Shown here: positions 3,683 through 41,348 of the stretch, piece after piece | Position numbering within the stretch: position 1 is the first letter of the stretch | How the letters are laid out: the number at the start of each line of letters is the position of its first letter | Notes under the pieces: model-generated | Seen by the model: the letters and a program-made list of their open reading frames with translations, nothing else | Told to the model about the DNA's origin: nothing | Databases searched by the model: none | Translations under genes and position numbers: made by a program | Source of the DNA: a virus | Length of the DNA: 41,348 nt | Virus record (IMG/VR): IMGVR_UViG_3300048609_000070 | Direction: 5' to 3' (one strand)

Positions 3683-3688
3683 AAATTT

Positions 3689-5265: not shown

Positions 5266-5487
5266 CTAATTATCTTTTTCAAAATCTTGATTATTTTTTT
5301 TCGGAACATGGGGCCTCCAAAGCTCTTTGTAGCCCAAGCCACAAAATAGCATGAGCGCAAACATGTGGCTGATTGCATCGATTGGGTTCACGCACTCGTG
5401 CCCCCATGCAGCTACGCCATATTGTATAAGAATGCCTATGGGGAGAAGCACCAGAGTAGCTATCAAAAACGTTTTTCTGAATTTCAT
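5266..5487 (-). CDS. small membrane protein
   Basis: 73 aa with two hydrophobic segments; ends next to the preceding gene's start. Confidence 0.5.
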   Translation of the reverse strand: MKFRKTFLIATLVLLPIGILIQYGVAAWGHECVNPIDAISHMFALMLFCGLGYKELWRPHVPKKNNQDFEKDN

Positions 5488-8990: not shown

Positions 8991-9051
8991 GGTCAGACCT
9001 CCTTCGGTTTTCAAACCCTTCTTCTATAGTTTATCGCATTCGGGAGATTTT

Positions 9052-9061
9052 TTGTCCAATT
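9052..9061. promoter_or_regulatory. second copy of the TTGTCCAATT operator half-site, upstream of the HTH gene
   Basis: Exact 10-mer shared with the palindrome at 7121-7140; followed by GTGTTGACTAAA. Confidence 0.35.
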
Positions 9062-9087
9062 ATTTTTTGTGTTGACTAAACTTAGGA

Positions 9088-10618: not shown

Positions 10619-10866
10619 TTCTCTCCTCCTAAGTATTTTATCCTGTCCGTGTTTAGTGGCGCGCAGCATCCTTCGCCGATGTATAGTTGTATCGTGTATG
10701 TTTCTGCCAGTCCACAGTTATATTTTTCTCCATTGAAGGATAGATACGGACATGGAGATCCTGGATCTGCGTTTGGTCCTTCTACCATTTGTGAAAGAAC
10801 ACAACGTGCTTTCTTGCAGCAATATCCACATTGAACGCACGGTCTAGAAAATATCTTAGGACTCAT
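10615..10866 (-). CDS. YkgJ/UPF0153-type Cys-cluster small protein
   Basis: CVQCGYCC ... CPYLSFNGEKYNC; ATGA-type overlap with both neighbouring genes. Confidence 0.5.
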   Translation of the reverse strand: MSPKIFSRPCVQCGYCCKKARCVLSQMVEGPNADPGSPCPYLSFNGEKYNCGLAETYTIQLYIGEGCCAPLNTDRIKYLGGEK

Positions 10867-12113
10867 GGAGGATCCTTCTTTACCTGATAAATTGTTGGAA
10901 TAATCTTGTCTCCTCCTACCAGAAGAGGATGTATCCATTTGAGTACAATAGCCTGCTTCTTTGGATCATCTCTAGGACCTGTCCAATATGAATGCCAATG
11001 CGCCCGTCTTACATGGGGTCTCGGTGACGCATGCGTTCCTTCGCCTCGAATGGACTCTGCCTCTCTGTGGCTCCTTAACACAGCCCCCACCTTATATCCA
11101 ACATCCCATTGAGTTGGATTTGCAGGCGGAAAAAACTTGGGTCCAGTAGCGGTTGATACAGGTGGAGGAGGACCCGGCTTTCTCCTCTTTCCAGCGTGAT
11201 CGATTATGTCAGGCTGTTCCGAGCAGAGGTACAAGAGAATAGAGACAACAGAGCGCAAAGCGTTAACGACGTACCCGCGCGCGCTCTTAACCGCATCAGT
11301 CAATACCCCAAGACCTCGATCCTCTATTTCTCGTTCCGTACCAATGACCATTTCTTCGATTGTTGCTTTAGGGTAAAGATGAGCAACAAGATGCACAGGT
11401 TTACCATTTCCCAATAAAACAACTGCTAACTCTGCATGCTGCTGACCAACATCCCAATCAAGATTTGCAAAAAAAGAAAACTCTTCTCCTAACTCAACGT
11501 ATACGCACCACTCCGGGAGGCGGAAAAGAACTTCAGAGGGAATTGGCCCTGAAATAGGTGCTTCAAGGAGCTCCTCTGCGAGATCAATATCAATACGATA
11601 AATACCCTGTGTTTGCCTCCATGTCGCGACAGCTCCAAGAATTGGAATATCGTCCAGCAATTCATCTGGCACTTTTGAACTTCCGCCAGAAACAATTGCA
11701 TAAGCAGCGTGCAAGGGAACCCAGCACCAAGAAGGCCAATCGTCGAAATCTGGAGAGCCTTTACGCGCCCGAAATTTTGCGTAATCTTGCCATGCATTGG
11801 GATATTTCTCTGACATCACGCGCATCAGATCAACTGGTATCGTGTGCTGCATTTTTTTCAAAATTTGTTTTCCTCTCCTGCAAGGACTATCCGGTTTTCC
11901 TACTTGCGTAAATTCTGCACAGGGTGTTTCTTCGTACCATGTATAGTTGTGTATTGCACAGGAGTACTCTCCTGGAGCTGCCCCAATCAGATGTTTACAT
12001 TTCTCCCCTGAAGTTTTCGGAAGGATATTACCTTCTGAAATTCCAAGTTCTGGGTTGTTGACAATCCCAACAACGTATTCGATGCAACAATATCCACACC
12101 TGAGACAGATCAT
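10863..12113 (-). CDS. large protein with N-terminal YkgJ-type Cys cluster; C-terminal region unknown
   Basis: MICLRCGYCC...CKHL...YSCAIH at the N-terminus; 416 aa. Confidence 0.6.
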   Translation of the reverse strand: MICLRCGYCCIEYVVGIVNNPELGISEGNILPKTSGEKCKHLIGAAPGEYSCAIHNYTWYEETPCAEFTQVGKPDSPCRRGKQILKKMQHTIPVDLMRVMSEKYPNAWQDYAKFRARKGSPDFDDWPSWCWVPLHAAYAIVSGGSSKVPDELLDDIPILGAVATWRQTQGIYRIDIDLAEELLEAPISGPIPSEVLFRLPEWCVYVELGEEFSFFANLDWDVGQQHAELAVVLLGNGKPVHLVAHLYPKATIEEMVIGTEREIEDRGLGVLTDAVKSARGYVVNALRSVVSILLYLCSEQPDIIDHAGKRRKPGPPPPVSTATGPKFFPPANPTQWDVGYKVGAVLRSHREAESIRGEGTHASPRPHVRRAHWHSYWTGPRDDPKKQAIVLKWIHPLLVGGDKIIPTIYQVKKDPP

Positions 12114-13189: not shown

Positions 13190-13302
13190 TTTCGACCTCC
13201 TATCATTACTTCATTAGTTTATCGTAGGATCCCCTGGGTCTGTCAAACATTATTTTTATTTATTTGCAGAGCAAGCGGTATCCTGACTTCAGGAGAAAGA
13301 CT

Positions 13303-16686: not shown

Positions 16687-17211
16687 TTACTTGACTCCAA
16701 ATTCGTCTAACAACTTTATTAGTTCCTCTCCGTTCTTCTTAAATGACTTTTGGATCTCTTCTATTTTTCCTTCTGTCAGCGTAGTCTCTATCTTTGTTAT
16801 TGCAAGCTCCGTCAGACGGTTCTTATTTTTGATGTAGATCTCTTTGAGTCCTTCTTTGATTGCAACGCGCCGTAAGAGATCATCATGCTCCACAGATTGT
16901 AATGCTCCATGCTCGTAACGTGACAAGTCTTCTTCATCTATCTGCAAGAGCAGAGAAAACTCAGCAAGAGAAAGCCCAAGATTTTCTCTACAGGCAAGGA
17001 TCTTTTCAGGTTGGATCATCCCGTGTTTATCTCGGTAAGCGCGATACGCTGCAGCGGCAAAGTCAAACCCTTCAATGCCCCATTCCGCGTTACACAGCGG
17101 ACACGTGTTAAAGTGGTCCTCGTAGAGAACATCTTCGTGTCTGACCACAACTAATCTTGGCGCTACTTGTAAGGATGGCGTTATTTCTTTATCGCAGTTT
17201 GGACAAAGCAT
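16687..17211 (-). CDS. MqsA-like Zn-ribbon + XRE-HTH protein with a C-terminal extension
   Basis: CPNC...CPLC N-terminal zinc ribbon. ILACRENLGLSLAEFSLLLQIDEEDLSRYEHG is an XRE-type HTH. Same domain order as antitoxin MqsA. Confidence 0.6.
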   Translation of the reverse strand: MLCPNCDKEITPSLQVAPRLVVVRHEDVLYEDHFNTCPLCNAEWGIEGFDFAAAAYRAYRDKHGMIQPEKILACRENLGLSLAEFSLLLQIDEEDLSRYEHGALQSVEHDDLLRRVAIKEGLKEIYIKNKNRLTELAITKIETTLTEGKIEEIQKSFKKNGEELIKLLDEFGVK

Positions 17212-18966: not shown

Positions 18967-19455
18967 CTACGCTGCAAGGTCTTTCTTCAGGTACGCCCGC
19001 GCTCTCCGGATAGCTCTCTTGTGGCGCCACGAGATGAGAGCAGGGGAACAGCCCTTTGATGGTGCGATTTCTCGGATTGTCTTTTCTTCGAGGTACATCT
19101 GAGAGAGGACTTCGACATCCTCTGGGGTCAAGTGCTGATAGATGGCATGCACATCGATCACTGCATCATTCATTGGATACTGTACTATACCAGAACGTAT
19201 ACAGGAGCAGTTCTTATTTTCTCTACACTCATGTCGGCAGGCGTCCATGATGGCAGACTTCGCGCGCATGAGAAAGAACGTGGATGGAGCAGCACCTCTT
19301 GATGGATCGTAGTCTGAAATGGATTTCATGGAGGCTTCATTTCCGATTTGTATGAGGTCTGAGATATCAAAACGGTAGGCAGTCCAGCGGAGATACTTAG
19401 CGGCGAGTCTCCTTATCTTCTGTTGGAAATCGTTTGAAGCAATCAATTCCTTCAT
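18967..19455 (-). CDS. ECF-like sigma-70 family sigma factor
   Basis: Region 2: DLIQIGNEASMKSISDYDPSRGAAPSTFFLMRAKSAIMD. Region 4 HTH: LTPEDVEVLSQMYLEEKTIREIAPSKGCSPALISWRHKRAIRRAR. RBS AAGGAGAA before ATG 19455 (the ORF track extends to 19635). Confidence 0.7.
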   Translation of the reverse strand: MKELIASNDFQQKIRRLAAKYLRWTAYRFDISDLIQIGNEASMKSISDYDPSRGAAPSTFFLMRAKSAIMDACRHECRENKNCSCIRSGIVQYPMNDAVIDVHAIYQHLTPEDVEVLSQMYLEEKTIREIAPSKGCSPALISWRHKRAIRRARAYLKKDLAA

Positions 19456-19843
19456 TTTTATTCTCCTTGTCAATAAGGTAACGAATGAGCATGGATTCTT
19501 TGACGATCCGTTTCTTGTCCTGGTCCGCGAGGAGGCCCACCGCGCGTACTTCTCCACGTGTTCTGACTGTAATTTCCATTCCCCAGACAGCGGGACCCCA
19601 ACCAAATGGATGGCTGGAGAGACGGACTTGCGCAAGCTCGTCGTAGCTCTTGCCTGAGTCTATTTTTCGTTTGTCTTCTGGTGAGCATGGCATTGCCAAG
19701 ACGCCCTCAAAATCGCCATCGACATAGAGGAGCCTTATTCTGCATGCATCTTCGGGTTCTCGAACGATTTGTTTCAATTCTGCAAGGGTCTGATAGGGGA
19801 AATCCTCTTTGTTTATTTCGGGCTTTGTGTAGGTCTTTTTCAT
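19397..19843 (-). CDS. hypothetical protein; its start codon abuts the IS left end
   Basis: 148 aa beginning MKKTY. No RBS directly upstream. A perfect AAAGGAGG lies on the far side of the IS at 21255-21262. Confidence 0.55.
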   Translation of the reverse strand: MKKTYTKPEINKEDFPYQTLAELKQIVREPEDACRIRLLYVDGDFEGVLAMPCSPEDKRKIDSGKSYDELAQVRLSSHPFGWGPAVWGMEITVRTRGEVRAVGLLADQDKKRIVKESMLIRYLIDKENKNEGIDCFKRFPTEDKETRR

Positions 19844-19939
19844 CGGAAATTCGCCCGGGCGGAGACTCTGGCGTTTACGCCGGTGAGGAGCCCGGGCCTC
19901 CTTTCTCTGTCGTTATATGCCTTCCTGATCTGAATTCGC

Positions 19940-19969
19940 TTGACTTGTCTATAGATGCCAATCTATACT
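19940..19969 (+). promoter_or_regulatory. tnpB promoter TTGACT-18-TATACT
   Basis: -35 at 19940-19945 and -10 at 19964-19969, 8 bp before ATG 19977. Confidence 0.4.
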
Positions 19970-19976
19970 TTGACCC

Positions 19977-21233
19977 ATGCAGATTCGCAAGGGATTCCGC
20001 TACCGCATCTACCCTTCGCCCGAGCAGATCGAACGACTCGGGCAGTGGGAGAATGCGCTTCGGTTTCTTTGGAACCTCGCTCTCGATCAGCGTCTTTTGT
20101 GCCTCAACCGGACGCGGTACAACCGGGTCTTTCTGACAGCCTTCGACCAGATTAACGAACTGACCGAACTCCGTAAGGAAGTCGCTTGGCTCGCTGACGT
20201 TCCCAGGAACGTTTGTGCTCAGCTTCTGGTCGAGCTCGATAGGTCCTGGCAGCGCTGCTTCAAACGCATCGCAAAACAACCCCGCTGGAAGAAGAAGGGC
20301 CGGGACTCTATCGGGATCTGCGAGCCCCATCCGAAGGTGTGGCAGCTGGATGGGCGTACATTGCGCTTTCCCAAGCTCGGGGCAATCCCTGTAGTGCTGC
20401 ACCGGCCGCTCGAAGGCAAGCCCAAGACATGCACCATCCGCCGTGATGGGGACCAGTGGTTTGTGAGTATCTCGTGCGAGGTCGATGTGGCAGATCCTGT
20501 CCCTTCCAACAAACCCGCGATTGGCTTGGATCGGGGCGTCGTCAATCTGATCGCCGGTTCTGACGGGCGGCTCGTTCCCAACCCAAGACATCTCTCGGGA
20601 ACCCAGCGGCGGCTCCAACGAGCCCAACGGGTGGTGGCGAGAAGAAGAAGGGGTTCGAAGAATCAAACGAAAGCCAAGGGCCGCGTTGCCAGGCTGCATC
20701 GCAAAGTCCGCAGGCAGCGCGAGCACATCCTCCACGTCGAGTCCCACCGCATCGCCAAGAGCCACGGCCGTGTGGTGGTTGAAAAGCTCGATGTGAGGAA
20801 CATGTCCCGAAGTGCCAAGGGGACACTCGAAGTCCCGGGCAAGCGTGTGAAGCAGAAGGCCGGGTTGAACCGGGCCATCCTGGATTCGGGATGGGGCGCG
20901 TTCGTGGTCATGCTGCGGTACAAATTGGCCTGGGCCGGAGGGGTGCTGGTCGAGGTCCCCGCTGCCTACAGCTCGCAGACCTGCTTTCTCTGCGGGGCGG
21001 TAGATCCCCGAAGCCGTGTGTCGCAGTCGGAGTTTCGCTGCACGGCTTGCGGGCATGAAGCACACGCGGACATCAACGCGGCGAAAGTGTTGCTCAGCCG
21101 AGGAAACCTCGGTGGTGCTGTCTGTGGAGGATCCGCTGAAGTAGGGCGTCCTGTGAAGCAGGAACTCCGCGTCGTGAGGCGTGGACAACGGTCTAAGCAT
21201 GGTTCAGAGCTTCTCCAAAGCTCGGGCCTTTAG
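19977..21233 (+). CDS. tnpB: TnpB (OrfB) RuvC-like RNA-guided nuclease of IS200/IS605 family
   Basis: N-terminus FRYRIYPSPEQ. RuvC-I GLDRGV. Zn finger CFLCG...CTACGHEAHADINAAKVL. 418 aa. Confidence 0.85.
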   Translation: MQIRKGFRYRIYPSPEQIERLGQWENALRFLWNLALDQRLLCLNRTRYNRVFLTAFDQINELTELRKEVAWLADVPRNVCAQLLVELDRSWQRCFKRIAKQPRWKKKGRDSIGICEPHPKVWQLDGRTLRFPKLGAIPVVLHRPLEGKPKTCTIRRDGDQWFVSISCEVDVADPVPSNKPAIGLDRGVVNLIAGSDGRLVPNPRHLSGTQRRLQRAQRVVARRRRGSKNQTKAKGRVARLHRKVRRQREHILHVESHRIAKSHGRVVVEKLDVRNMSRSAKGTLEVPGKRVKQKAGLNRAILDSGWGAFVVMLRYKLAWAGGVLVEVPAAYSSQTCFLCGAVDPRSRVSQSEFRCTACGHEAHADINAAKVLLSRGNLGGAVCGGSAEVGRPVKQELRVVRRGQRSKHGSELLQSSGL

Positions 21234-21260
21234 GCCGGGGTAGTTTACGGGAGCCTCCTT
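21080..21260 (+). ncRNA. predicted omegaRNA (reRNA) scaffold spanning the 3' end of tnpB and the right end
   Basis: Inferred from the known TnpB architecture; only the right-end hairpins are seen directly. Confidence 0.3.
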
Positions 21261-21278
21261 TTGGGTGGGAAGGCTAAC

Positions 21279-26720: not shown

Positions 26721-26789
26721 CCTCCTTCACTAAGTTTATTTCGTCGGATTCTTTTTTTCAAGAGATTTTTTGATGGGCAAATTGCGTGG

Positions 26790-27469: not shown

Positions 27470-27543
27470 TTGCTCCTCCTTTGATCTCAACCTTGGGGTC
27501 CTGATCATTCAGAACGCCAAGGAAGCTTTCAAAGCTTCCTTCT

Positions 27544-27759
27544 CTAGTCTTGCCGGTAAATGCAAAATTGAGTTTTTCCCAATTTTATTTTTCCCCAAAA
27601 GAATCGTCCTACCTTACCCTTTGTCACAATCTTATGCTCTGTCAAACGCTCTATCAAAACAACGTATACTTTGCTTCCATGCTTGAAAGTGCCATGGTCT
27701 AGCTCAAGATCATCAACATTACATTCCAGATACTTCGCAAGGGCTTTGATTTTTGACAT
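27544..27759 (-). CDS. hypothetical small protein
   Basis: RBS AAAGGAAC before ATG 27759; a 19-nt perfect palindrome GGAAGCTTTCAAAGCTTCC lies just downstream (27521-27539). Confidence 0.45.
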   Translation of the reverse strand: MSKIKALAKYLECNVDDLELDHGTFKHGSKVYVVLIERLTEHKIVTKGKVGRFFWGKIKLGKTQFCIYRQD

Positions 27760-29258: not shown

Positions 29259-30464
29259 TTAGTCAAGGATTTTGCATCTTGTCAAGGTTGTCTGCTTGAC
29301 TCCCTGATATTCGTCGTGTTTTTTGACGGTGGCTTTGACCTTATAGGTCCCTCCAATTTCCACCTTTGGATCCTTCGACGAAAACCAGACGGCGCGGTTC
29401 CCTTCTTCCGACAAGAATTTGACGATCCGCGTCACCCCCCACTGATTTTCGGTCTCAAAGATCGTGCTCACAGTCAAGGTGAAAACTTCTCTCTTGCCAA
29501 CTTCCCCGAAGTGATTCGATGTCTCTGCAGCATGCTTTCGTTCTACTTCCTTTCCCACCCATCGGCGGTAGCCAGCCACAGCAGAAGCGGCAATCCCAAA
29601 CAGCCGGTCATTGACTCTTCCGAGTCCTTCAACCGTTTTCAGGTTGTACTCGTAATCCGACACCGCTTTCTCGGTTCCTAAGTTCCGGATCCATTCTCTT
29701 GTCGCAAGTGCCATATCGATGTCTTCCTGCGTGGGCTCTCGTTCTGTGCAGAATTTCCGGATGTCTGGATCCTCCCGTCTGTCGAAGAACATCGTTCCGC
29801 ATATGTTTGCCGTGGACTGCACTCCATGAGTCATTGCTTGCGATTTTGACAGCCAGCCATCGATCCGGATGAGCGCTGCCGTCACTGCAAGGAACTTGTC
29901 AAGATTGATCCAAGCTTCTGTGCGCGGACCACCAGAACGTTCGCTTTCTTCTCTTGCTTCGTCACATAGATCGAGCACCATTTCACAGTAAGCCGCTGCG
30001 CTCTCCGGATCGAATCCGGCACCTGTGAAATCCGACAAGCATGTTGATCCAACGATCTTGTACGTCAAGCTCTCATCCTGCAAGACATAAGTCTTTACTC
30101 TTTTCCGGATTTGATGGCAGTGCTCACAGATCGGCCCGATTGTCCGGAACCGTTCCGGAAGATCCATCCCAGGAACGACACGCAGGATTGTGATCGGCTT
30201 TCCCTCATCATCGACCAAATGATCGAGCGCCGCGACGAAGGCACACCCGGCAATCCTTGGCGTCTCTCCAGAGATCTCCACCTCGATAGCTTTCCACTCA
30301 TGTCTGATCTCCGTGAATGGATCGATCTTGGACTTGAAAACCTCTCGGATCGTGGTCATAGACACCAAAGGGAATCCGAGCTTGACCGCTTTTTTGTTGA
30401 TTTTTTCCAGCTTGATCTCTAGTTTTCCCATGCTCTGCTCTGGGATCGTATAGATCGTTTTCAT
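29259..30464 (-). CDS. hypothetical protein (401 aa)
   Basis: RBS AGGAGGT 6 nt before the internal ATG at 30464; contains CEHCH. Confidence 0.6.
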   Translation of the reverse strand: MKTIYTIPEQSMGKLEIKLEKINKKAVKLGFPLVSMTTIREVFKSKIDPFTEIRHEWKAIEVEISGETPRIAGCAFVAALDHLVDDEGKPITILRVVPGMDLPERFRTIGPICEHCHQIRKRVKTYVLQDESLTYKIVGSTCLSDFTGAGFDPESAAAYCEMVLDLCDEAREESERSGGPRTEAWINLDKFLAVTAALIRIDGWLSKSQAMTHGVQSTANICGTMFFDRREDPDIRKFCTEREPTQEDIDMALATREWIRNLGTEKAVSDYEYNLKTVEGLGRVNDRLFGIAASAVAGYRRWVGKEVERKHAAETSNHFGEVGKREVFTLTVSTIFETENQWGVTRIVKFLSEEGNRAVWFSSKDPKVEIGGTYKVKATVKKHDEYQGVKQTTLTRCKILD

Positions 30465-30706
30465 GGAATACCTCCTGTTTCCCTCGATTGCCTTGTAAGA
30501 AGCAATCCAGGGAAACCCTGGAATCATTCCAGCGCGTTTCCTCAAAAGAAAGAATTTAGTTTTTTGTGTATCAGGGCCAAGTCATGGCACTCTCCATCTG
30601 TTACTGGGTTGATTGAAAAACGGCGGTAGGCAATCGAGGCTTGTTGACTCTACCGATCATTTCAGGCCAGCGTTACTGCCAAACCATGGAATCCTCCTCT
30701 TGAGAT

Positions 30707-30882: not shown

Positions 30883-31197
30883 CTAAACCCCGTATTTTTG
30901 TTTGAGCTCTTTGGCGAGTCTTCGTCTGTACGTTGAAATGGGAATCAAGTAGGGGCCTTCCCATCCATCGACGATTTTTCTGGTCAAGACATCCAACCTC
31001 TTTTCTAGTTTCTTTACAAGACGTCTTGCCTGTTTGAGCTGGTACTCGATTTCCGATTGTGTCTCTCGCATCAAACCCTCCGTGTCTTTTTGACGGCTCT
31101 TTTCTCCTGCGCTTTCCTCCATGCCAGCACGTTTTGAACCAGCATGCCGCGCTTGCGCCAGTCTTCCATCGATTGCCAATTCTGAACAACGATACAC
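30883..31197 (-). CDS. hypothetical basic coiled-coil protein (start uncertain)
   Basis: 104-aa ORF. A competing 44-aa ORF (31071-31205, RBS GAGGAGAAAAG) overlaps it in another frame. Confidence 0.3.
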   Translation of the reverse strand: MYRCSELAIDGRLAQARHAGSKRAGMEESAGEKSRQKDTEGLMRETQSEIEYQLKQARRLVKKLEKRLDVLTRKIVDGWEGPYLIPISTYRRRLAKELKQKYGV

Positions 31198-31266
31198 TTT
31201 TCCATGATCTTTTCTCCTCTGAGTGGTTCAACAGGCGGATCAATCTTTGATCCGCCGATCAACCTC

Positions 31267-32043
31267 TTAGACTTGGAACCAGTCTGGCTTTGGTTCATTC
31301 CCACTCTTGACCGAGACGCCCATGCGATACCCTTCTTTGTAGGCGTCAGCCAGATCTTTATCTGACCCACCTTTTCCCGATCCGGAGATTGCATCCATAA
31401 ACCCGGCATAGTAGGCGATTGGATCATCCGAAGGAATCTTTCCCAGCTTGACTCTTGTCACGATCGGAATGGTCTGAACTTTCTCAGGTGTAATCCCGGA
31501 GATCTTCGCAGCCAACTTCCCGGCAGGATCAGTTCCCATTGCAGCGCGGCAAAGCCCACTCTGAAGATCTCCCTGCCCGAATTCTCTTGCTGTACTTCCC
31601 AGCCGATTGACCGGTCTCTGCATTCTTTCCTCGTATGCATCCCGATCAGAGGAGAGCAGGTAGCTTTCTTTTCTTGCCTCCCGAAACAGGCGCCCACGAT
31701 CATTTCCCATTTTTGAGAAAAGAGGAGCAGAAACACCATAGTCAACCAAACACTGAACAAGACATGCATCCACATCTTTGTCAGCGACGATTTGACCGTT
31801 GTGTTCCTGAACAACGATCCCATTGTCCATTTTCCATCCACAGGATCTCAGAGCCGATTCCATTTCTTTCAACGGAACGACGTCGATGTCAACTTCTTTC
31901 AGAGCGATTTCGTAGGCTTCTTCTGCGTCACTTCCACATGCATCCACCATGTCAGTCAAATGGATGATGTGGAACCGGCGGCCTTCGATCTTTCTCATCC
32001 ACCGTGCATCTCTGTCTTCGTAAACTACTTTAAATTTTCCCAT
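31267..32043 (-). CDS. hypothetical protein
   Basis: RBS AGAGGAGAAAG before the internal ATG at 32043; 258 aa. Confidence 0.6.
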   Translation of the reverse strand: MGKFKVVYEDRDARWMRKIEGRRFHIIHLTDMVDACGSDAEEAYEIALKEVDIDVVPLKEMESALRSCGWKMDNGIVVQEHNGQIVADKDVDACLVQCLVDYGVSAPLFSKMGNDRGRLFREARKESYLLSSDRDAYEERMQRPVNRLGSTAREFGQGDLQSGLCRAAMGTDPAGKLAAKISGITPEKVQTIPIVTRVKLGKIPSDDPIAYYAGFMDAISGSGKGGSDKDLADAYKEGYRMGVSVKSGNEPKPDWFQV

Positions 32044-32110
32044 GATCTTTCTCCTCTTTTTTGACCTGTCATGTTTGGAGTTTAGCAACTAAACTCCAAC
32101 GGTTGACATT

Positions 32111-32431
32111 TCAAACGCTGCTCACTTGCTGGAACAAGAACCACATCATGGAAGCTTGCACCATGACGTTGTGATCCGAATGTTCGATCCTTTCGAGGCA
32201 ATGCGCATAAAACGCCCCGATTGCCTCCGGGTTTTGCTTGACTCCAACTCGGTAGGCTCCCCGCCCACACCGCTGTTTGCCGATCTTGTGACTCCATTCT
32301 TGGATCTGCAATTTCTCGCAGTACCATGGATCCACGTCAAAGAAGCTAGACACGCAATCCAAACCAAAGAACGCTTTTTCCGTTCTTTCGTCTGGTTTGA
32401 TTCTACGGCATGACGGCGCTTTCAAAAACAT
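32111..32431 (-). CDS. hypothetical protein
   Basis: RBS AGGAGGTG before ATG 32431; 106 aa. Confidence 0.5.
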   Translation of the reverse strand: MFLKAPSCRRIKPDERTEKAFFGLDCVSSFFDVDPWYCEKLQIQEWSHKIGKQRCGRGAYRVGVKQNPEAIGAFYAHCLERIEHSDHNVMVQASMMWFLFQQVSSV

Positions 32432-32493
32432 GGGGCACCTCCTGTGAAAGTTCGAGCTGCAAAAGGACATCTGTCCTTTGGCAGATCCAACTG

Positions 32494-32763
32494 TCAGTTA
32501 TTTTTTTCTTTCCCATAAAGATCCTCATCCCAAAGGTACACCCCATCGGCGATTTCATGGTAGCCAGCACCAATATCTCCCATTTGCGGGGGATTCCTTC
32601 GTGCGCCAAGGCAATCCCCACAGAGGCATCCTTCTTTCCAGCTTGGACAAAGTTTGGACCTTATTCGGCGCATCCATGCTTTTGATCGTGTCGTTCCGTT
32701 TGGGTCAATCCGAATGACAACTTCAGTATTGTGGAAATTATTTTCTAGTAGGTACTTTTTCAT
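32494..32763 (-). CDS. Cys-containing small protein
   Basis: RBS GGGAGGT before ATG; CPSWKEGCLCGDC. Confidence 0.5.
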   Translation of the reverse strand: MKKYLLENNFHNTEVVIRIDPNGTTRSKAWMRRIRSKLCPSWKEGCLCGDCLGARRNPPQMGDIGAGYHEIADGVYLWDEDLYGKEKNN

Positions 32764-32765
32764 TT

Positions 32766-32848
32766 GTTACCTCCCGAGGTAAAGGACAAAGCAGATGAAT
32801 CCAACTGGGATCAGCTGGATTCCAAAAAGAAACAATCCGAGCTCCATG
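32766..32848 (-). CDS. 26-aa hydrophobic peptide (MELGLFLFGIQLIPVGFICFVLYLGR)
   Basis: RBS AAAGGAGAAAAG before ATG; single predicted TM helix. Confidence 0.3.
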
Positions 32849-32867
32849 GCTTTTCTCCTTTGATCTG

Positions 32868-33089
32868 TTATGGCATGTCTTTTGTAATCGCGGCCGATCG
32901 GCCATTTCCGGTATACCGCGCGATCTGATTGTCAGGGGAATTTTCACATCTTGACAACCTGGCGTTTTTCCCACAATAGCGGCGCGCTTCTTTTCGCGCA
33001 TTTTTTTCTGATCTGAAATACAGGTGTGTTTCAGGCCAGCCGTTGTTGACCACTTCGGAAACGCAAAATAGCTCTTCTGATTTTTTCAT
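32868..33089 (-). CDS. hypothetical small protein
   Basis: RBS AGAGGAGCAG before the internal ATG at 33089; 73 aa. Confidence 0.45.
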   Translation of the reverse strand: MKKSEELFCVSEVVNNGWPETHLYFRSEKNARKEARRYCGKNARLSRCENSPDNQIARYTGNGRSAAITKDMP

Positions 33090-33155
33090 TTGTTTACTGC
33101 TCCTCTTTTGATCTGTCACGTCAATGGACGAAAGCTTCGTCCATTGCCTGACATC

Positions 33156-33665
33156 TCAATTGAAGTCAACCCACGGAACCTCCGGGGCATGCCCCCAAAG
33201 GTTCACCTGGATCCCATAGCCAGCGAAGGCCGTCGCCACGCGGAGCGCGGCATGGTTGCTTTCCCGGTGGAAATTGATCGAACACCGCGTTTCCTCGATT
33301 GCCACCGTGACTCCACCTGGCGTCTTGAACATGACCTCCAGGAACGATGGGGGATCCTGATCGGCACCATCTTGCTCCACCGTGACTTGCGCCCTTTGGG
33401 GGTGTGGATTTCCTTCCTCCGGAACCGCCGATTCGACGATTTCCTGAGCTATCGTGCAGGCCCATCCATGGATGCCCGATCCGATGCTCCGGGCATTCAC
33501 GGCTCTTTGGTCAGGACCAGACATCGTTCCTGTCAACACCCCGAGCAGCTCCGCCCATTTCTCCCGGTTTGCCTTGAGCGACCCAAAGATCGCCAAAGCC
33601 TCTGCTAAGGCTCCAGCATTGTCTTTGTCCGGACTAAAATTCACAACGAATCTTGTATCGTTCAT
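33156..33665 (-). CDS. hypothetical protein
   Basis: RBS GGGAGAGAAAT before the internal ATG at 33665; 169 aa. Confidence 0.55.
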   Translation of the reverse strand: MNDTRFVVNFSPDKDNAGALAEALAIFGSLKANREKWAELLGVLTGTMSGPDQRAVNARSIGSGIHGWACTIAQEIVESAVPEEGNPHPQRAQVTVEQDGADQDPPSFLEVMFKTPGGVTVAIEETRCSINFHRESNHAALRVATAFAGYGIQVNLWGHAPEVPWVDFN

Positions 33666-33750
33666 ATTTCTCTCCCGATCCACACGGCCAACCATGTGAG
33701 ACCCACCAAGCTAAAGTTTAGTGCTAATACCGCCAATGTAACCCCTTGAG

Positions 33751-33984
33751 TCATTTTCTTTCCTTTCTTGAAAGTTCGATCTGGCGCAAGACCTCTCTTG
33801 CGTCAGGCCCAACTGTCAATTCCATCGGATCGAAACATAGTACCAGACATCTTCCATCCCAGCAGCAGCCCCAACCGTCTGGTGTTCCACCCTTGCCTCC
33901 ACAGGCGGGGCAGGCCGTCGCCAGAACTTCTGGTGCAAAATCAGGCCATTTGACAATAACTTTAACTTTTTTAACCTTTTTCAT
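33751..33984 (-). CDS. Cys-rich small protein; last gene before the noncoding region
   Basis: RBS GGAGGT before the internal ATG at 33984; CPACGG...GCCWDGRC. Confidence 0.45.
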   Translation of the reverse strand: MKKVKKVKVIVKWPDFAPEVLATACPACGGKGGTPDGWGCCWDGRCLVLCFDPMELTVGPDAREVLRQIELSRKERK

Positions 33985-34599
33985 GTTACCTCCAAGTTTA
34001 GGTCTAAAACTTCCGATCCTGATCTCTAGCATCTCACCACGCCACAGATCAAGATCGGAAAGACACTGGGATTGATTCTGCGAACTCTGAAGTTGTCTAG
34101 ATTGCGCTTGCTTATCCAAGCGGATTGAGTCTTTACACCCCGTAGACCTCGATCTTCCACACTCCGGAAAACGCCTTTCCCTGTGCGCCAGGGTAGCTAT
34201 GTGAGCCGCGTCACTTGAGCACTTCAGATCTCAGTTTGACCAGACTGTCCATTTGGTCCTGACTCCCGGAGTCAGTCTGATCCCGTCAGATGTAAAGCCG
34301 ACCGGTTTTCAAAGAGCAGCTGGAATCCGAAGTTCCAGTTCCGTTGGATCCAGTGACTTAGGATCCTCTGGTTTTTCCCTTTCCTTTCCCCTGCAGACAT
34401 CCAGCTGCAGGTTCTGATGGCCGTGGTCCTCTCGTTTTCTGTGGAGGACCGTTTTCCCAGGTGCCGTACCTACCATCCATTGCACTCCGCGTGCCAAGTT
34501 TAGTCGCCAGGAAAATCAACCCCACATGTTTTTGCGATGCGAACCGTTCTACACTCCTCTCTAGCAAATCCACAACGAAGGATGTGAACTAAACTGCGC

Positions 34600-35100
34600 T
34601 CTCCGTGTAAACTTATGCTCAAAGAGAGAAGGAAAGAACCCTCCGGGTCGATGCCAAAAGCTAAGGAAGGCCCTCCGGGGCCAAAAACTAAAGAGGAGCA
34701 CGCAGGAAGGGGGAAACCTAAAGACGCACCCCCGGAAAGAACCTTGGCAAGCGGGATCTTTAGTCGGAAAGAACATGACCCCCAGCGAAGGAAAGGAACC
34801 TCGCGGAAAAAGAACCGGAGGAATCCTTTGCCGGAGCGCAACAAAAACGAAAGCTGCGAGGAAACCACCCGAGGCAACGAAACCGCTCTGGCCAACATCG
34901 GGGAAAGCTAAACCTGAAGGAAGGAACCCAGGAAGGATGCAAAGGCAAGACGCGCAATCTAGCCTCGGAGGAAACGAAAGGACGCTCCCATGGAAAGAAG
35001 GGAAACCGAAAAAGCTACCAGGGGAATCTAAACTGGGAAGGAACCTGCCAAAAGACTTCCATGAGACTAACCTTAGAACGAGGATCCATCGGAAGGAACG
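34600..35100 (+). repeat. purine-rich degenerate tandem array of GGAAAGGAACC-like units (about 15 copies, spacing about 20-35 bp)
   Basis: By eye: ggaaagaacc, ggaaaggaacc, ggaaggaacc, gaaaccacc, ggaaacgaaagg and similar recur; plus strand about 75% purine. Only low-complexity K/E/R/P-rich ORFs cross it. Confidence 0.5.
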
Positions 35101-35679
35101 AGAGTAGGCTTACAGCGTTTAGTCACAGAAGGAATGAAAGGATCCTATGGAGCTTCCCCTGTACGAACCTAAGCGAGAGCCTACTCTAGCCTGTGGAACT
35201 AACCTGTGCTAACCTTGTATGCCTTGCCTGCTACCCTACCGATGGCCGTAACTAACCTTCAACATCATCTTGCTACGGGCTTTCCATACGAGGGTGCACT
35301 TTCCATGAGACTAAACTTTAGCACTAACCTGTTAGCGTGAGACGGGTGCGTGCTACTCCGCGGAGCGGGTTGACCCTCCGGGCATGTCTATGGGGATCCC
35401 TCACACATGCTGTCCGCTGGCTGTACAGGCTATCTTGTTACATTCTGTGCGAGTAACCGCGCGTGGGGGGTCAGTTGCAGATAAACTTTAGAGTCATCCA
35501 TAGTTGTATTTTACAACTAAACTTCGATTAACGAGCCTATGTGCGCCCTTTGAAGCCCCCTCTCCCGAAAAATGTAGGCCATTTCCTGACGTTTGGTTTA
35601 GCTCAAACCGCGTATTGTTTAGTCTTTTGATTAGTTTTATCGGAACTAAACTAAAGTGTGTATCCCGCTGCACGGAGGT

Positions 35680-35910
35680 AACGCCGGGCGGTTGGCGCCC
35701 GGGCTCCCGGGCCAGCGTGGTCAACCCTCCGGCGCGCTGATCGGCGCAAGACGCGGGGCCTTCCCGCGCAGCACGCGGAGCTCCGCGCCGTCGCCTCCGG
35801 CGCTTGGATGCGCGTCTTGAGCGCTTAGGAGCCCACGCAAGCGCTATCGGCGCGCGGAGCCTTATCCGCGCTGGCCAGCGCATGCTCTCAGCGCCTGCAG
35901 GCTCCTCTGG
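35680..35910. other. isolated ~230-bp GC-rich island (>70% GC) with nested inverted repeats
   Basis: GCGCAAGACGCG...CGCGTCTTGAGCGC and GCGCTT-N12-AAGCGC inverted repeats. CGCCGGGCGG ... CTCCCGGGCC resembles the IS left-end motifs CGCCCGGGCGG ... AGCCCGGGCC at 19852-19900. Confidence 0.4.
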
Positions 35911-36239
35911 CTAATCTCGCTTTCCTTCCCTACTGAGAGGAGAGCAAGTTGCGAACCCTACGATTGCCAGACCCGTTACCAGACGAACGGAAAGGCCCCT
36001 TCCCTGCGTTCCAATGACTGGGGGGCCATCATGGTATTCCTTTGGGGGTCCAATCGATTCTAGGCCCCTTGGAACGCTCCACAGGGCCTATCGAGGAAAA
36101 CTTCAATGATTTCAAGGGTAGGATTTCCAATGATGTAGTAGCAGCTTTATCCCTGTATCAGGAGAGATACAGTCTACCTCTGAAAATTGGCCTAACATAC
36201 AAGCATTGTTTATGTTTATCTTTTTGTTCACATAACTGA

Positions 36240-37240
36240 TGTTATCGGACTTTGGACTAATGTTTAGTTATTCTCATTAGTTATCTTTGTGTAAGTTTCA
36301 GGATTTTGCTGTAGCTACGAAGAGACATCAATCGTACAGGAGTGCTTCATGGGATTCAGACCCCCATGCTTAGGTCCGGGAATGTTTAGTTATTTTTGGG
36401 GAGTGTAGTTTAGTTCCTGGAGGTGTTCCAGGGGTGGGATCCAAACCTCCCGGTTTAGTCTAGTGGATTTGCTATAGTTTAGTTAGTGCCGCATTAAAAT
36501 CCCTGCCTCTTGGGGAGGCTCCGCCCCCCAGGGTTACCCCCGCAGTATGGATGGATTAATTTTTAGATCTGTGTTTAGCATATATAGCTCCTATCCGCAT
36601 GCGAGAGTAGAAAGCAAGCAGACGGCATATTCCCCTTCGGACCTACCCGTTCGTCGCGCAAATAAAGTGACAAAAAATTTTGGGAATTTCTGGAAAAATC
36701 TTGTTTAGCTTATTAAGTTACATCCCTTTGCCGAGCCTATTGCCCTTTGTTCTTCCAAGCAGAAGAAATACCTCCTGCCTCCTCATGAGGCTGGGGTTAC
36801 CCCCACTTCTAGAAATTAATTTTTTGGAAACCTATGTTTAGCATATTCCTTCTTCTTCCGTTCCTTCTTATGGCTACACCCCTTTTTTCTTTCATGCCTT
36901 CTTCCTTCAGGTCTTTAGAGCTCTTTCTCCTTTTTTGGGTCTTTCCTTTGGTAGATCTTTAGTTTTTGGTTCTTTCCCTTTGTTCAGCTAATAAGTGTAC
37001 AAAAAATTTCGAAAAAATTGGGTAGAATCTTGTATAGTATATTTAGTACCATACTTTTTGGTAGGTGTTTCCTTCCTCGTAGTTTTTGGATGTCTCTCCT
37101 TGGAAATCAAGAAAGGGATTGTTTAGCTTTTCCTTCGTGTTTAGCTAATAAAGTTACAAAAAATTTTGGAAAACTGGAAGAAAACCTTGTATAGGTTATT
37201 TAGGTACACTTTCCTTAGAATTTATTTTTAAGGAGGAAAA
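36240..37240. repeat. iteron-like region: at least 10 copies of TGTTTAG(C/T)TA-type motifs, three copies of a ~70-bp repeat, two copies of a GGGGTTACCCCC module
   Basis: ~70-bp repeat (core TAATAA(A)GTKACAAAAAATTTYG...CTTGTWTA...TTTAG) at 36655-36725, 36982-37053, 37136-37208. Module GGGGTTACCCCC-N-ATTAATTTTT-N-TGTTTAGCATAT at 36527-36585 and 36794-36848. The strand here is pyrimidine-rich, the reverse of 34600-35100. Confidence 0.55.
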
Positions 37241-37348
37241 ATATAGTTTTTTTCAGAATCTGAGGGAAAAATTTGGGAGGCTGGTAGTGGGTGGGGCCGA
37301 GTTCCCGTAGGAGCTCGACTGCAGCCTGTCGAAGAGTCTTCGACGTGT

Positions 37349-37525
37349 CGCTCATGACACCCCCGAATTCGACACCGCCACAGCGGCGACCGCGTTAGCA
37401 ACGACTGTCATACGCAAAAACCCCGCGCCGTTCTGTCGAAGCCACTCTTTCCGCTCTCGGACCACAAAGTCGATGATGGTCAAGAGGCCATCATGCTCTT
37501 TCAGTGGAGCGTGAGCTTCCAGCAT
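37349..37525 (-). CDS. 58-aa ORF overlapping the hsdR stop (TAATG), at the GC/AT junction
   Basis: [20 protein letters not shown]...; followed by a 46-aa ORF (MSDTSKTLRQAAVELLRELG...) that runs into the AT-rich DNA and degenerates. Confidence 0.25.
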
Positions 37526-40500
37526 TAGCTCAACACTCCTTCCGCCATCAGTTCGGCCTGGCGGATCACCAACTGCGTTGCGGATTCCTGCGCATCGGGC
37601 GGATAGCCGTACTTCGTTAGCAAGCGGCGTACGGTCCGGCGCATGTCTGCTCGAACCGTCTCCCTTTGCGTCCAGTCCAGAGACGCCTTAGCCTTGATCC
37701 GATCAGCGAGTTCCCGAGCGATTAGCTTCAGCGTGTCGTCCTGCATCACATTGCGAGCTGATTCGTTGTCGGCGAGGGCGTCATAGAACGCGACCTCGTC
37801 TTCGCCGAGCCCAGACTCCTCGCCACGATGTACAGCCTCGCGGATCGCCCTGGCCAGACCGATTAGTTCCTCGATAACTTGCGCTGTCGTGAGAGCCCGG
37901 TTGGTGTAACGGGTGAGTGTTGCCTCCAACGATTCGCGGAAGCCTCGCGACTGTACGATATTGACTCGTTCCCGGCTACGTATCTGGTCGTTGAGAAGCT
38001 TTCGCAGTGTCTCAAGAGCAAGGTTTCTGTGCGGCAACGAAGCCAACCGTTCCAGGAAATCCTCGGACAGAATGCCAACGTTCTGTTCCGGCAATCCGGC
38101 AGCCTGGAAGAGGTCAATAACACCGTCCGAAGCGATCGCGCCCGAGATCACCTGCCGCACAGCCGCTCGTGAATCCGGCGGTGGCGGCGGGCCATCGTCC
38201 GCGAGCCGCTTGCGTATCGCCGCCCGCACGGACTGAAAGTACGCCAAGTCGTCTCGAATGACCTCGGTCTCTTTGCGCGGCACAGACAGTGCAAACGCCT
38301 TCGACAGGCCTGCGACCATTGTCATGAACCGCCGCTTGCCGTCCTCCTGCTGGAACACGTAGTCCGCACCGGCCGACACGGCGTGCAGTTGATCCGCCTC
38401 CATGCCTTTGAAAAACCCGCTGTAGTCGAAACTGTTGAAAAAGTCCTTGAGGACCTCGAATTGTCGCTCCATCAGCGGAACGGCTTCATCTTGAATCTTC
38501 TCGACGGGGTTACCCTCGCCGCCCGCTTGAGTGTATGTCTGCACTGCGTCACGGAGCTGATCGGCGATTCCGAGAAAATCGACCACGACGCCGCCGGGCT
38601 TCTCACCAAACACACGGTTCACACGGGCGATAGCCTGCATTAGGTTGTGGCCGGCAAGTGGCTTATCGAGATACATCGTGTGCATCGGTGGGCAGTCGAA
38701 TCCCGTCAGCCACATATCGCAGACGATCACGAGCCGCAGCTCATCCTCGGGGTCCTTGAACCGCCTTGCCAAGGCTTCCCGTCGAGCCTTCGTCCTGGCG
38801 TGCTGAGCGACGCGGTTCCCTTCGCCCGCTGAGCCGGTCATCACCACCTTGATGAACCCGGCATCGTCTTCGTCCGCGTGCCAATCCGGCCGGAGCGTCA
38901 CGATCTCATCGTACAGATCCATGCAGATGCCGCGACTCATGCACACTGCCATGGCCTTGCCCTCGATTACCTCCCGCCGCTTGACGAAGTGCTCGACGGC
39001 CTCTCTGGCCACCAGCTTGAGCCGCTCCTTTGCGCCGACGAGCTCTGCCAGCGGCACCTCGATGTCCGCCGGAATCTCGCGGCCTTCCTTCTCGGCCTCT
39101 GTGGCGGCGCTGAGTATCTGTTCGGCTTCAGCGATGCCAGCTTCGTCCGGCAGCAGCTTCACCAGCCGCATCTCGTAGTAGATCGGTACCGTCGCGTTGT
39201 CGTTTATGGCCTGGCGGATATCATATATGTCCGCGTAGTCGCCGAAGACGGCCGGCGTACTGCGGTCGTCACGTTCCAGCGGAGTGCCCGTGAAACCGAC
39301 GAAGGTCGCGTTCGGGATCGCGTCCCGCATCCATCGAGCGCCGCCGTCGAGGAACCCGTACTGGCTGCGATGAGCCTCGTCAGCCATGACCACGATGTTC
39401 GACCGCCCACTGACTGCCTCGCCGCGCTCCTTGAATTTCTGGATGGTCGTAAACACCACGCCCCCGGAGGCGCGTTGCAAACGAGAGGCGAGGTCGTCGC
39501 GGCTCGCGGCCTGCTCCGGTTCCTGGCGCAGTAGGGCCCGTCCCGCCGCGAAGGTGCCAAAGAGCTGGCCGTCAAGGTCGTTGCGGTCCGTCACAACGAC
39601 AACGGTCGGATTCGCCAGTTGATCGTCGCCGATCAACGACCCGGCCAACATCAACATGGTTAGGCTCTTGCCCGACCCCTGTGTATGCCAGATTACTCCG
39701 CCGCGACCGTCGCCCCCGCCGACCGGCGGCTTCAGTGCCGCCTTCACCGACGCCCGCGCATTGCGTACCGCCCGAAATTGGTGATACCCCGCTACCTTCT
39801 TGACTATTTCGCCGCTGCGGTCGTCCTCCTCAAACGTCACGCAGTGCCGCACGTAGTCCAGCAGCCGCGACGGATCGAGCAGCCCCTTGATGAGCACTTC
39901 CAGAACGGGCCGACCGGGCTCCCGATAGTCTTCGATGGATCGCCACGGCGAGAAGCGGTCCGAGCCAGCTGTCAGCGACCCAACCCGCGTAGTGTCACCG
40001 TCGCTGACCACCATCAATTCGTTGTAGACGAACAATGGTGAGATGTGCTGCTTGTAATCTTGAAGCTGGCGGTACGCCTTCCAGATATCTGCTTGCTCGT
40101 TGGTCGAGTCCTTCAGTTCGACCACCACCACCGGCAGACCGTTGAGGAACACGACGAGGTCCCCCCGACGCGTACTGTTGCCGCACTTGACCGTGAACTG
40201 GTTGACCGCCAGTAGGTCATTTCGCTCGGGCCGGGCGAAGTCCACCAGCCACGCCTTGTCGCCGCGAGTATCGCCAGCCTTTGTGCGGTACTCCACGTCG
40301 ATGCCGTCGGTCAGCAGGAGATGGAACCAACGGTTGTTTTGCGCAAGCGTTGGCTCGGGCGGGCGTGTGACAGCGCGCACAGCCTGCTCGATGGCATCTT
40401 CGGGTAGCTTCTCGTTGATTTTTCGTAACGACGCCCGCAGGCGCGGCTCCAAAACCACATGCTCGTGACTCTCCCTAAGCGGCGTCTCCGCACCGGGCGA

Positions 40501-40581
40501 GATATCGGCGCCCCGAGCGATGTCGAAACCGAGGAACTCGAACCAGGCGAGGGCAGCCTTTTCCACGATGTTTTCGTTCAT
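37525..40581 (-). CDS. hsdR: type I restriction-modification system R subunit (HsdR)
   Basis: HSDR_N-type N-terminus [19 protein letters not shown]. Helicase motifs GSGKS, DEAH box [19 protein letters not shown]. 1018 aa, about 63% GC. Confidence 0.9.
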
Positions 40582-41183
40582 TCAACGTTCTCCCCGGCCT
40601 CTGGCTCGTCAGCGCCCACTTCTTGTTCTTCCTTGAACTCGATCAACGCGGCCCGGTACGCCGAGAAATCCGTGCGGAACAGCGCCTCGCTAGCAATCAG
40701 CGAAACATTCAGCACTGCAAATGGCCCGTAGTCGTTATCGATATGTTCGTCGAAATCCGAGTGGACTCCGTACCGGAAGCGCGTCAGCGGATCACGTTGC
40801 GCTGAACTCAAGTGCGTCTTGAACAGCAAGCCAACAACCGCATCCGTTGCTCGCGCCAGAATTTCGGCGTAGCGCGCATCGAGAAGCGGCGAGTAGGCGT
40901 CCGCCCCATGGGCTGCAGAGCCGTGGGCATTCCGGATTTCGACCACCCCTTGGACAATCTGATTCAACCCGCGGACCAATGATTCAGCGCCGCCGCGCAA
41001 CTTAGCGTCAACACCTCCATCTTCAGTTAGCCCGAGATTGAGATACTTGAGCGCTTCGGAAACGAGCTTCGGTGCCTCCCATCCGGCATCTACCGGCACG
41101 CTGCGGTCCGCGAGGATGGTCTTACAGGTCGTCTCTATGATCGTTCTGCAAAACGAGACGACAACACCGGGCCGGGCCGGCAT
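40578..41183 (-). CDS. Abi_C-domain (abortive-infection C-terminal domain) protein embedded in the type I R-M operon
   Basis: Conserved [11 protein letters not shown] motif typical of Abi_C; ATGA overlap with the hsdR start. Confidence 0.65.
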
Positions 41184-41207
41184 TGCCTCCTCTAGCGCCT
41201 CGACTTG

Positions 41208-41297
41208 CTAGCGGATTCGCAGTGATTCAGGGTGCGCATCCAGTAGTTCGCGGCATGCCGCAAGGAGCACGGGAGAACTAGTCGGGTTATCCGCCAT
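41208..41297 (-). pseudogene. in-frame 29-codon N-terminal extension of the Abi_C gene, separated from it by a single TAG
   Basis: ATG 41297 with RBS GAGGGGGT 6 nt upstream. Reads [46 protein letters not shown]... in the same frame as 40578-41183. Confidence 0.35.
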
Positions 41298-41348
41298 AGT
41301 TCACCCCCTCGTCCCTGGAGACTCGGAGCTCTCCTGACGTCAGTTTTG

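Follow-up and report, generated by a model that had tools for sequence, protein, structure and literature searches.

The window analyzed here is the whole 41,348-nucleotide stretch of the IMG/VR virus record IMGVR_UViG_3300048609_000070. It is a slice of a 136,545-bp contig of an uncultured phage (JGI), on which the RecT-like protein of the window is found with 100% identity. In the right part of the window, a field of ~3.2 kb free of open reading frames (ORFs) separates the leftward genes of the phage from an embedded GC-rich type I restriction-modification (RM)/abortive infection (Abi) island. Whether read in the standard code or with any one stop codon reassigned, 33985 to ~37290 contains no credible ORF. 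The subject of this analysis is a repeat family of three units, which occupy the final 650 bp of this field, beside the 3' end of the RM/Abi island. The components of the locus are as follows.

33985–37290, unstranded: ORF-free field of ~3.2 kb, consisting of a left arm, a GC-rich palindromic core and a right arm that carries the units
~34480–35700, purine-rich on the plus strand: left arm, with the words CTAAAC(T), CTAACCT and GAAGGAA in mixed orientation
35650–36060, ~68% GC: GC-rich core, with several perfect 14-nt palindromes (CGCGGAGCTCCGCG, GCGCTGGCCAGCGC)
36200–37290, pyrimidine-rich on the plus strand: right arm, with all TTTAG and TGTTTAGY motifs on the plus strand (CTAAACA on the minus strand)
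37290–41348, minus strand: GC-rich island (~60%), with two small ORFs, hsdR (37525–40581) and the gene for an Abi_C protein (40578–41183)

The original prediction had described three copies of a repeat in this region, and they are confirmed as an ungapped family. The repeat search found one family of three copies of 66 nt each (36652–36717, 36981–37046 and 37138–37203), with 67–77% identity to the reference copy. In the self-BLAST of 33700–37300, the three units were the strongest repeats (E = 3.6e-11, 1.1e-10 and 2.5e-8), and all remaining pairs had E-values of 1e-5 or worse. The copies can be aligned without gaps over 86 columns (36645–36730, 36974–37059 and 37131–37216), with 66–77% identity. 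The distances from unit to unit are 329 and 157 bp. The nhmmer profile built from the three copies was searched against the window and 8.4 kb of extra sequence to the right. It recovered only those three (E = 3e-23 to 2e-21; the next best E-value was 0.8), and the proposed search for further copies thus ended with the same three.

The blocks GC.AATAA, ACAAAAAATTT, CTTGT.TAG, TATT.AG and CA are conserved across the copies. Because these blocks extend beyond the A-tracts, the possibility that the likeness is confined to low-complexity A-tracts, which had been raised together with the prediction, is dismissed by the alignment. Two details of the original description apply to some of the copies. 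The sequence TGTTTAGCT, described as preceding every copy, precedes only copy 3 exactly; the corresponding sequence is TGTTCAGCT in copy 2 and CGTCGCGCA in copy 1. TTTAG was described at the end of each copy, but copy 1 ends with TTAAG.

The "iteron field" said to surround the copies is also real. In 36251–37250, TTTAG is present 15 times on the plus strand, while CTAAA is absent from that strand. Allowing up to one mismatch, TGTTTAGC occurs ten times on the plus strand in 36213–37145, where ~0.3 occurrences are expected, an estimate derived from the whole-window shuffle mean of 24.9 on both strands. Approximately 20 TGTTTAGY/TTTAG cores and seven to eight 21-bp boxes in the same orientation, which are described below, cluster within 1 kb. 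Outside the field, GTTTAG occurs at background frequency, and near gene starts it mostly corresponds to TAA stop codons of the preceding gene. CTAAAC as a general motif upstream of genes was rejected for the same two reasons. The repeats are most likely paralogous copies of one composite regulatory DNA module inside a larger field of motifs in one orientation.

A second repeat family with two copies is also observed in the right arm (36531–36583 and 36794–36846; GGGTTACCCCC...ATTAATTTTT...TGTTTAGCATAT). Each of its copies is preceded by a GCCTC...GAGGC hairpin, and the copies alternate with the three main units.

Each unit is composed of a left 21-bp box, an A6T3-4 tract overlapping the end of this box, a variable 17-nt segment and a right 21-bp box. 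The positions of these elements, with one box outside the units, are listed below.

36645–36730, plus strand: repeat unit 1, the most degenerate; left box at 36652–36672 (CGTCGCGCAAATAAAGTGACA), right box at 36702–36722 (TGTTTAGCTTATTAAGTTACA)
36670–36678, plus strand: ACAAAAAAT of the unit 1 core, followed by the putative -35 TTGGGA (36680–36685), an 18-nt spacer and the putative -10 TTTAGC (36704–36709)
36974–37059, plus strand: repeat unit 2; left box at 36981–37001 (TGTTCAGCTAATAAGTGTACA), right box at 37031–37051
36999–37007, plus strand: ACAAAAAAT of the unit 2 core, followed by the putative -35 TCGAAA (37009–37014), an 18-nt spacer and the putative -10 TATAGT (37033–37038), which among the units comes closest to sigma-70
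37131–37216, plus strand: repeat unit 3; left box at 37138–37158 (TGTTTAGCTAATAAAGTTACA), right box at 37188–37208 (TGTATAGGTTATTTAGGTACA)
37156–37164, plus strand: ACAAAAAAT of the unit 3 core, followed by the putative -35 TTGGAA (37166–37171), an 18-nt spacer and the putative -10 TATAGG (37190–37195)
36572–36592, plus strand: further 21-bp box not contained in a unit (TGTTTAGCATATATAGCTCCT; 18 bits), part of the second two-copy family

In all three units, the right box begins exactly 50 bp after the left box. The left and right boxes belong to one family, with pairwise identities of 9–19 out of 21 positions; the highest value is between the right box of unit 1 and the left box of unit 3 (19/21). 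The matrix built from the six boxes also detects the sites at 36572 (18 bits) and 35422 (14.6 bits), both on the plus strand. The 14-bp core TWTAGNWWATWWAG occurs six times against 0.63 expected, always on the plus strand in 36473–37203, and two of the six are outside the units. All 11 positions of ACAAAAAATTT are invariant, in contrast to the variable 17-nt center. Within this variable segment, A-tracts repeat every ~11 bp, as read directly from the sequence.

The minus strand of the window holds four promoter-like sites, intergenic or at gene ends, upstream of phage genes. They are listed together with the sigma factor gene of the phage.

9028–9082 (~9033), minus strand: promoter-like site, GTTTAG-N5-ACAAAAAAT-AA-TTGGAC-N20-TAAACT, after a terminator and before a ribosome-binding site (RBS) and ATG
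13216–13257 (~13221), minus strand: promoter-like site, A-rich tract, TTGACA, 19 nt and TAAACT, then RBS and ATG
26733–26770 (~26738), minus strand: promoter-like site, CAAAAAAT-CTC-TTGAAA-N17-TAAACT, then RBS and ATG
27530–27592, minus strand: fourth match to the composite pattern, at the end of one gene and 60–120 nt upstream of an RBS and ATG
18967–19635, minus strand: sigma-70-family factor with regions 2 and 4, passing the TIGR02937 cut-off

At ~9033, ~13221 and ~26738, a (C)AAAAAAT tract is directly upstream, a terminator or a gene end precedes the site, and the RBS and ATG, oriented as the gene, follow at a short distance. The units share this architecture. Exact ACAAAAAAT is present six times in the window: three in the units, two in the ~9050 promoter and one elsewhere. 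In the ~9050 promoter, GTTTAG lies shortly before ACAAAAAAT, an order of elements shared with the units. On the plus strand, unit 3 reads ACAAAAAAT-T-TTGGAA-18-TATAGG, and unit 1 has TTGGGA-18-TTTAGC. A generic sigma-70 scan independently called unit 2 (TCGAAA, 18 nt, TATAGT). Each of the putative -35 elements, TTGGGA, TCGAAA and TTGGAA, agrees with TTGACA at four of six positions. Between the two hexamers, every unit has a spacer of 18 nt, for which sigma-70 promoters have 17 ± 1 nt.

The composite pattern A5T-(0-5)-T[TCG]G[AG]NN-(16-20)-TWWA[CG]N, written from the observed sites, has seven matches in the window. These are the three units on the plus strand and the sites at 9067, 13257, 26770 and 27592 on the minus strand. 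The shuffle mean is 0.02, and no match was found in ~120 kb of other phage loci. The site at 27592 played no part in the design of the pattern, yet it matches. The sigma factor is a candidate reader of some of the promoter-like motifs of the phage. No homologue of it was found in 50,697 deposited phage genomes. Two contigs of a relative (L092 and L093) carry a Sigma70_r2 protein beside a homologue of the 258-aa gene.

The units form one repeat family with a two-box anatomy, and they have an architecture in common with promoter-like sites upstream of phage genes. We consider, with a probability of about 40%, that they are repeated, box-regulated promoters of the sigma-70 type, yielding noncoding or antisense transcripts. 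In this reading, the promoter core would consist of the A6T3-4 UP-like tract, a TTGGAA-type -35, the 18-nt spacer and a T(A/T)TAG(N) -10, and it would be recognized by a sigma-70-family factor. Two direct 21-bp putative protein-binding boxes, 50 bp apart, would bracket this core, with the left box just upstream of the A-tract. With T(A/T)TAG as the putative -10 hexamer, the start would be ~7 nt after it, inside the right box; this geometry differs from that first proposed. Because the right box overlaps the -10 and the start site, a bound protein would block or tune initiation. Such an arrangement of boxes and core would be the layout of an operator-controlled promoter. The modules face right, and would produce noncoding transcripts over the pyrimidine-rich right arm. 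Transcripts starting at unit 3 would enter the captured hsdR/Abi island at its 3' end, in antisense orientation. We infer the initiation by RNA polymerase, the protein binding to the boxes and the role of the transcripts from the sequence architecture.

Repeated promoters were one of three options offered in the original prediction, beside iterons and packaging or partition sites. It is the option with the most support, owing to the architecture common to the four gene-upstream sites, but the geometry differs and the orientation is away from genes. No plus-strand gene is downstream of the units. All flanking genes are on the minus strand, including those beyond the island. Several further observations weigh against the promoter reading. 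Conservation within the unit is highest in the flanking boxes and lowest in a part that includes most of the putative -35 and of the spacer, as would be expected of binding sites more than of a promoter. Of the key -10 bases, A in the second and T in the sixth position, only unit 2 (TATAGT) has both. TATAGG of unit 3 does not have the T, and TTTAGC of unit 1 has neither, so units 1 and 3 would be weak sigma-70 promoters. The gene promoters of the phage use TAAACT as the -10, unlike the units. The composite-pattern count is partly circular; because the pattern was written post hoc, it lends support but does not amount to proof. In the right arm, it is the minus strand that is rich in A, as are the coding strands of the phage, and this hints at leftward rather than rightward transcription. 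No clear terminators are found downstream of the units, nor any Rfam family or structured RNA downstream of them on the plus strand. No box-binding protein was identified: the neighboring genes are ORFans, and the PDB sequence search with the two nearest of them gave no match.

These difficulties leave real weight to other readings. A serious rival, although less probable, is that the units are instead sites of the iteron type, which would mark a replication origin or serve partition or packaging. The boxes would then load an initiator, a centromere-binding protein or a small terminase, and the promoter-like core would be incidental or used for transcriptional activation of the origin. The seven to eight boxes and ~20 cores clustered in one orientation within 1 kb are consistent with such sites, as is the better conservation of the boxes than of any other part of the unit. 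The phased A-tracts (~11 bp) between the paired boxes correspond to bent DNA. A compact phage genome would not usually include a large ORF-free region that is mosaic in composition and has GC-rich palindromes in its core. Several direct repeats of 17–22 bp in the same orientation, the usual sign of origin iterons, are present: the six unit boxes and those at 36572 and 35422. In phage P4, ori/crr contains long direct repeats, each with several copies of a short octamer iteron, a comparable layout. The units resemble the iteron origins of P4 (ori/crr), P1 and lambda in their ~20-bp direct repeats, in longer repeats holding short iterons and in the bent A-tract DNA. Unlike those origins, they have irregular and wide spacing, 329 and 157 bp, which does not make a tight iteron array, and neither an initiator gene nor a DnaA box is nearby. 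The window ORFs yielded no Rep, primase, initiator, ParA/ParB or terminase family, although the neighboring ORFans are possible novel initiators. No DnaA box (TTATCCACA with up to one mismatch) is present in 33985–37290, the cumulative GC skew shows no inflection at the field, and the related phage loci have no homologous field. The iteron option of the original prediction thus keeps its paired boxes 50 bp apart, extra boxes and single orientation, but has no rep gene or DnaA box nearby. The packaging or partition option retains its protein-binding component, but no terminase gene is nearby.

The strand composition points to another alternative, in which the units would contain leftward promoters with a -10 only, read by a phage-specified sigma factor and driving strong transcription into the leftward genes. 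This seems unlikely. On the minus strand, the units contain CTAAATA, CTATACA and GCTAAACA, which resemble the T4-type late promoter TATAAATA and its Aeh1 variant. The heptamer CTAAATA of the unit equals the late-promoter consensus of the T4-like Aeromonas phage Aeh1 (PMC1524935), and CTAAATA and CTAAACA heptamers are on the sense (minus) strand, as in T4-type late promoters. In the window, CTA[AT]A[CT]A is present 24 times on the minus strand and never on the plus strand; 13 of the 24 are at 35622–37203, and 12 of these are in the right arm. Every flanking gene reads in the minus-strand direction, and the right arm is A-rich on that strand. The phage also has its own sigma-70-family factor, and the relative L091 has TTGTCA-N12-TAAA(C/T)A elements in sense orientation. 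The late-promoter motif is found on the minus strand of units 2 and 3, in a window without late genes. Unlike in T4-type systems, it is not upstream of identified late genes and lies inside the 21-bp box. Against leftward promoters, it is not enriched upstream of genes elsewhere; its genic occurrences, like those of CTAAAC, are mostly (TAA) stop codons. The bipartite minus-strand pattern is not general in the window. No gp55, gp33 or T4 core genes were found in the window. The gp55-type search covered the submitted window ORFs (most of those of at least 80 aa) and found only the conventional sigma-70-family protein, which has regions 2 and 4, unlike gp55. The A-tract and the 50-bp box geometry are also unexplained by leftward promoters. 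Quite improbable is the reading as functionless, decaying segmental duplications, which would be junk or a recombination scar left by the acquisition of the RM/Abi island. It is consistent with the presence of only three copies, 66–77% identical and irregularly spaced, with the absence of homologues from public viral or metagenome collections and with the compositional mosaic of the field. However, conservation is block-wise, with the invariant ACAAAAAATTT (11/11) against the variable 17-nt center. The length and the 50-bp box spacing are exact in all three copies, without indels over 86 columns. The motif field in one orientation is far above chance, and the units resemble the promoter-like sites that precede genes of the phage. 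Under packaging pressure, phage genomes seldom retain as much as 3 kb of inert DNA.

A more elaborate version of the promoter reading, which we regard as highly improbable, takes the field as a control cassette built by the phage for the captured defense island, with an array of box-regulated early promoters and ~20 TGTTTAGY sites in one orientation as protein roadblocks. The promoters would fire antisense into the 3' end of hsdR and the two small downstream ORFs. Jointly, promoters and roadblocks would time or silence the restriction subunit and insulate the downstream phage operon from read-through.

Other identities of the units were rejected. Short noncoding RNAs were suggested in the original prediction as products of repeated promoters; structured ones are not supported, with no Rfam family, fold or z-score signal over the units. 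A structured RNA, riboswitch or CRISPR-like repeat is dismissed likewise: Rfam, with gathering and E-value thresholds, gave only a tRNA and one chance microRNA match. The consensus fold of the units with RNAalifold was -3.2 and -1.7 kcal/mol on the two strands, and the window z-scores were 0 or higher. A coding repeat or recoded stop codons is rejected, since copy 2 is in a different frame and the translations are of low complexity. There is no long ORF over the copies under TAG, TGA or TAA reassignment. Differences between copies 1 and 3 seem to be in excess at third positions, but this is not borne out by copy 2, which is out of frame. Miniature inverted-repeat and palindrome-associated transposable elements (MITE/PATE) are rejected, as only three clustered copies are present, with no relation to the TnpB element at 19.8–21.3 kb.

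The nucleotide search of INPHARED phages revealed no homologue of the units, and pattern scans of IMG/VR and metagenomes gave only chance AT-rich matches (L003–L005). The loci of relatives, reached through the RecT-like protein and the 258-aa neighbor (L002, L007, L008 and L091–L107), contain no homologous unit. As the phage is nearly a singleton, comparison with other phages offers little evidence. The related contig L091, on which the product of the neighboring gene is 47% identical, has a 22-nt box of its own in an intergenic region, present as two identical copies with a spacing of exactly 50 bp. This spacing of paired boxes therefore recurs in the phage group. Other relatives carry their own short repeated intergenic elements. 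Species-specific paired regulatory boxes seem to be typical of the group.

Sigma-70 promoters with A-tract UP elements, arranged in tandem as early promoters, are known from bacteria and phages; T7 A1/A2/A3 are examples. The units are similar to them in the A/T-rich tract upstream of a TTGNNN -35, a spacer in the range of 17–20 nt and a TA-rich -10, and in the clustering of several equally oriented copies in a noncoding stretch of a few hundred bp. They differ in having no downstream gene, weak -10s in units 1 and 3, the 18-nt spacer and the 21-bp boxes. Operator-flanked, repressible promoters of phages can be compared as well, and so can the "stoperator" arrays, all in one orientation, of cluster A mycobacteriophages. 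The units share with them short asymmetric sites that recur many times in one orientation, one of which overlaps the -10 and the start, and pairs on approximately the same helical face (50 bp). Unlike stoperators, they have no identified repressor, they cluster in a single ORF-free field instead of being dispersed between genes, and the sequences are unrelated.

A repeated promoter/operator or iterons in a phage control region is a well-known kind of element. What is new is the sequence, the placement beside a phage-borne type I RM/Abi island and the antisense orientation. If the units are regulated promoters, they offer a handle on the transcription program of an uncultured large phage with its own sigma factor and no close relatives. 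They would also define a promoter class (A-tract, TTGRNN, TAAACT/TATAG) together with a candidate 21-bp operator. If they are iterons, they would point to the locus of replication or segregation in this phage lineage. In either case, the type of element is familiar, and it is chiefly of use for annotation. Most interesting is the position: the modules lie at the 3' flank of a horizontally acquired type I RM/Abi island, into which they are directed. Such a placement suggests a way in which a phage could control a borrowed restriction system.

On a Logan contig, the island continues past the window through hsdS and hsdM, after which small phage genes of low GC content appear. The full island, extending beyond the window over positions 5467–9146 of contig L006, is 55–62% GC and has the composition hsdM-hsdS-abiC-hsdR with two small ORFs. 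It sits within the leftward operon of the phage, with low-GC phage genes on both sides. A second, independent Logan contig is 100% identical over 31052–39349. Because this contig spans the junction at 37290, the junction is not chimeric and the island is embedded in the phage. A prophage boundary or an assembly chimera at 37290 was rejected on this agreement and on the resumption of low-GC phage genes beyond hsdM. The homologues of hsdR with 82–83% identity are scattered among Gammaproteobacteria, Planctomycetota, Kiritimatiellia and Acidobacteriota. Such a spread over many phyla points to no single host.

In the rest of the ORF-free field, the GC-rich core (35650–36060) resembles neither the TnpB element nor any other part of the window. 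The left arm (34480–35700) contains seven copies of TAAACT, the -10 hexamer of the phage gene promoters, as well as CTAACCT and GAAGGAA(C), without -35 partners. Promoters of the extracytoplasmic function (ECF) type with GGAAC were rejected there, as no consistent partner motif was found. At the left end of the field, a long, nearly perfect hairpin at 34011–34060 (within 33985–34110, minus strand; -45.8 kcal/mol, z = -4.3) is followed by UUUU. It is directly upstream of the RBS of the first leftward gene (33751–33984). It could be a terminator or attenuator closing the noncoding field, or a processing site.

All genes from 5492 to 33984 are on the minus strand. They include those for an SNF2 helicase, a VWA protein, the RecT-like protein (29259–30545) and a DUF2786 protein. 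The next relatives of the RecT-like protein are only 43% identical, and its homologues are in jumbo and T4-like phages. Among the early genes of the phage are those for an MqsA-family antitoxin-like helix-turn-helix protein (16687–17211, minus strand) and an AcrVA2-like protein (10863–12113, minus strand); the latter has its Pfam match on the identical Logan contig L001. A TnpB (IS605 OrfB/Cas12f-like) insertion at 19845–21275, with 61% GC and hairpin-forming ends, is located between phage genes, and tnpA was not seen with it. On the plus strand, a UDP-glucose dehydrogenase gene (232–2070) has an intein-like insertion (weak Intein_splicing match, residues 327–454). It is followed by the tRNA-Asn of the phage at 3688–3760, with which no att repeat was found. 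The Logan contig L090 begins one base before position 1 of the window; because of this, the window may begin at the end of an assembled contig.

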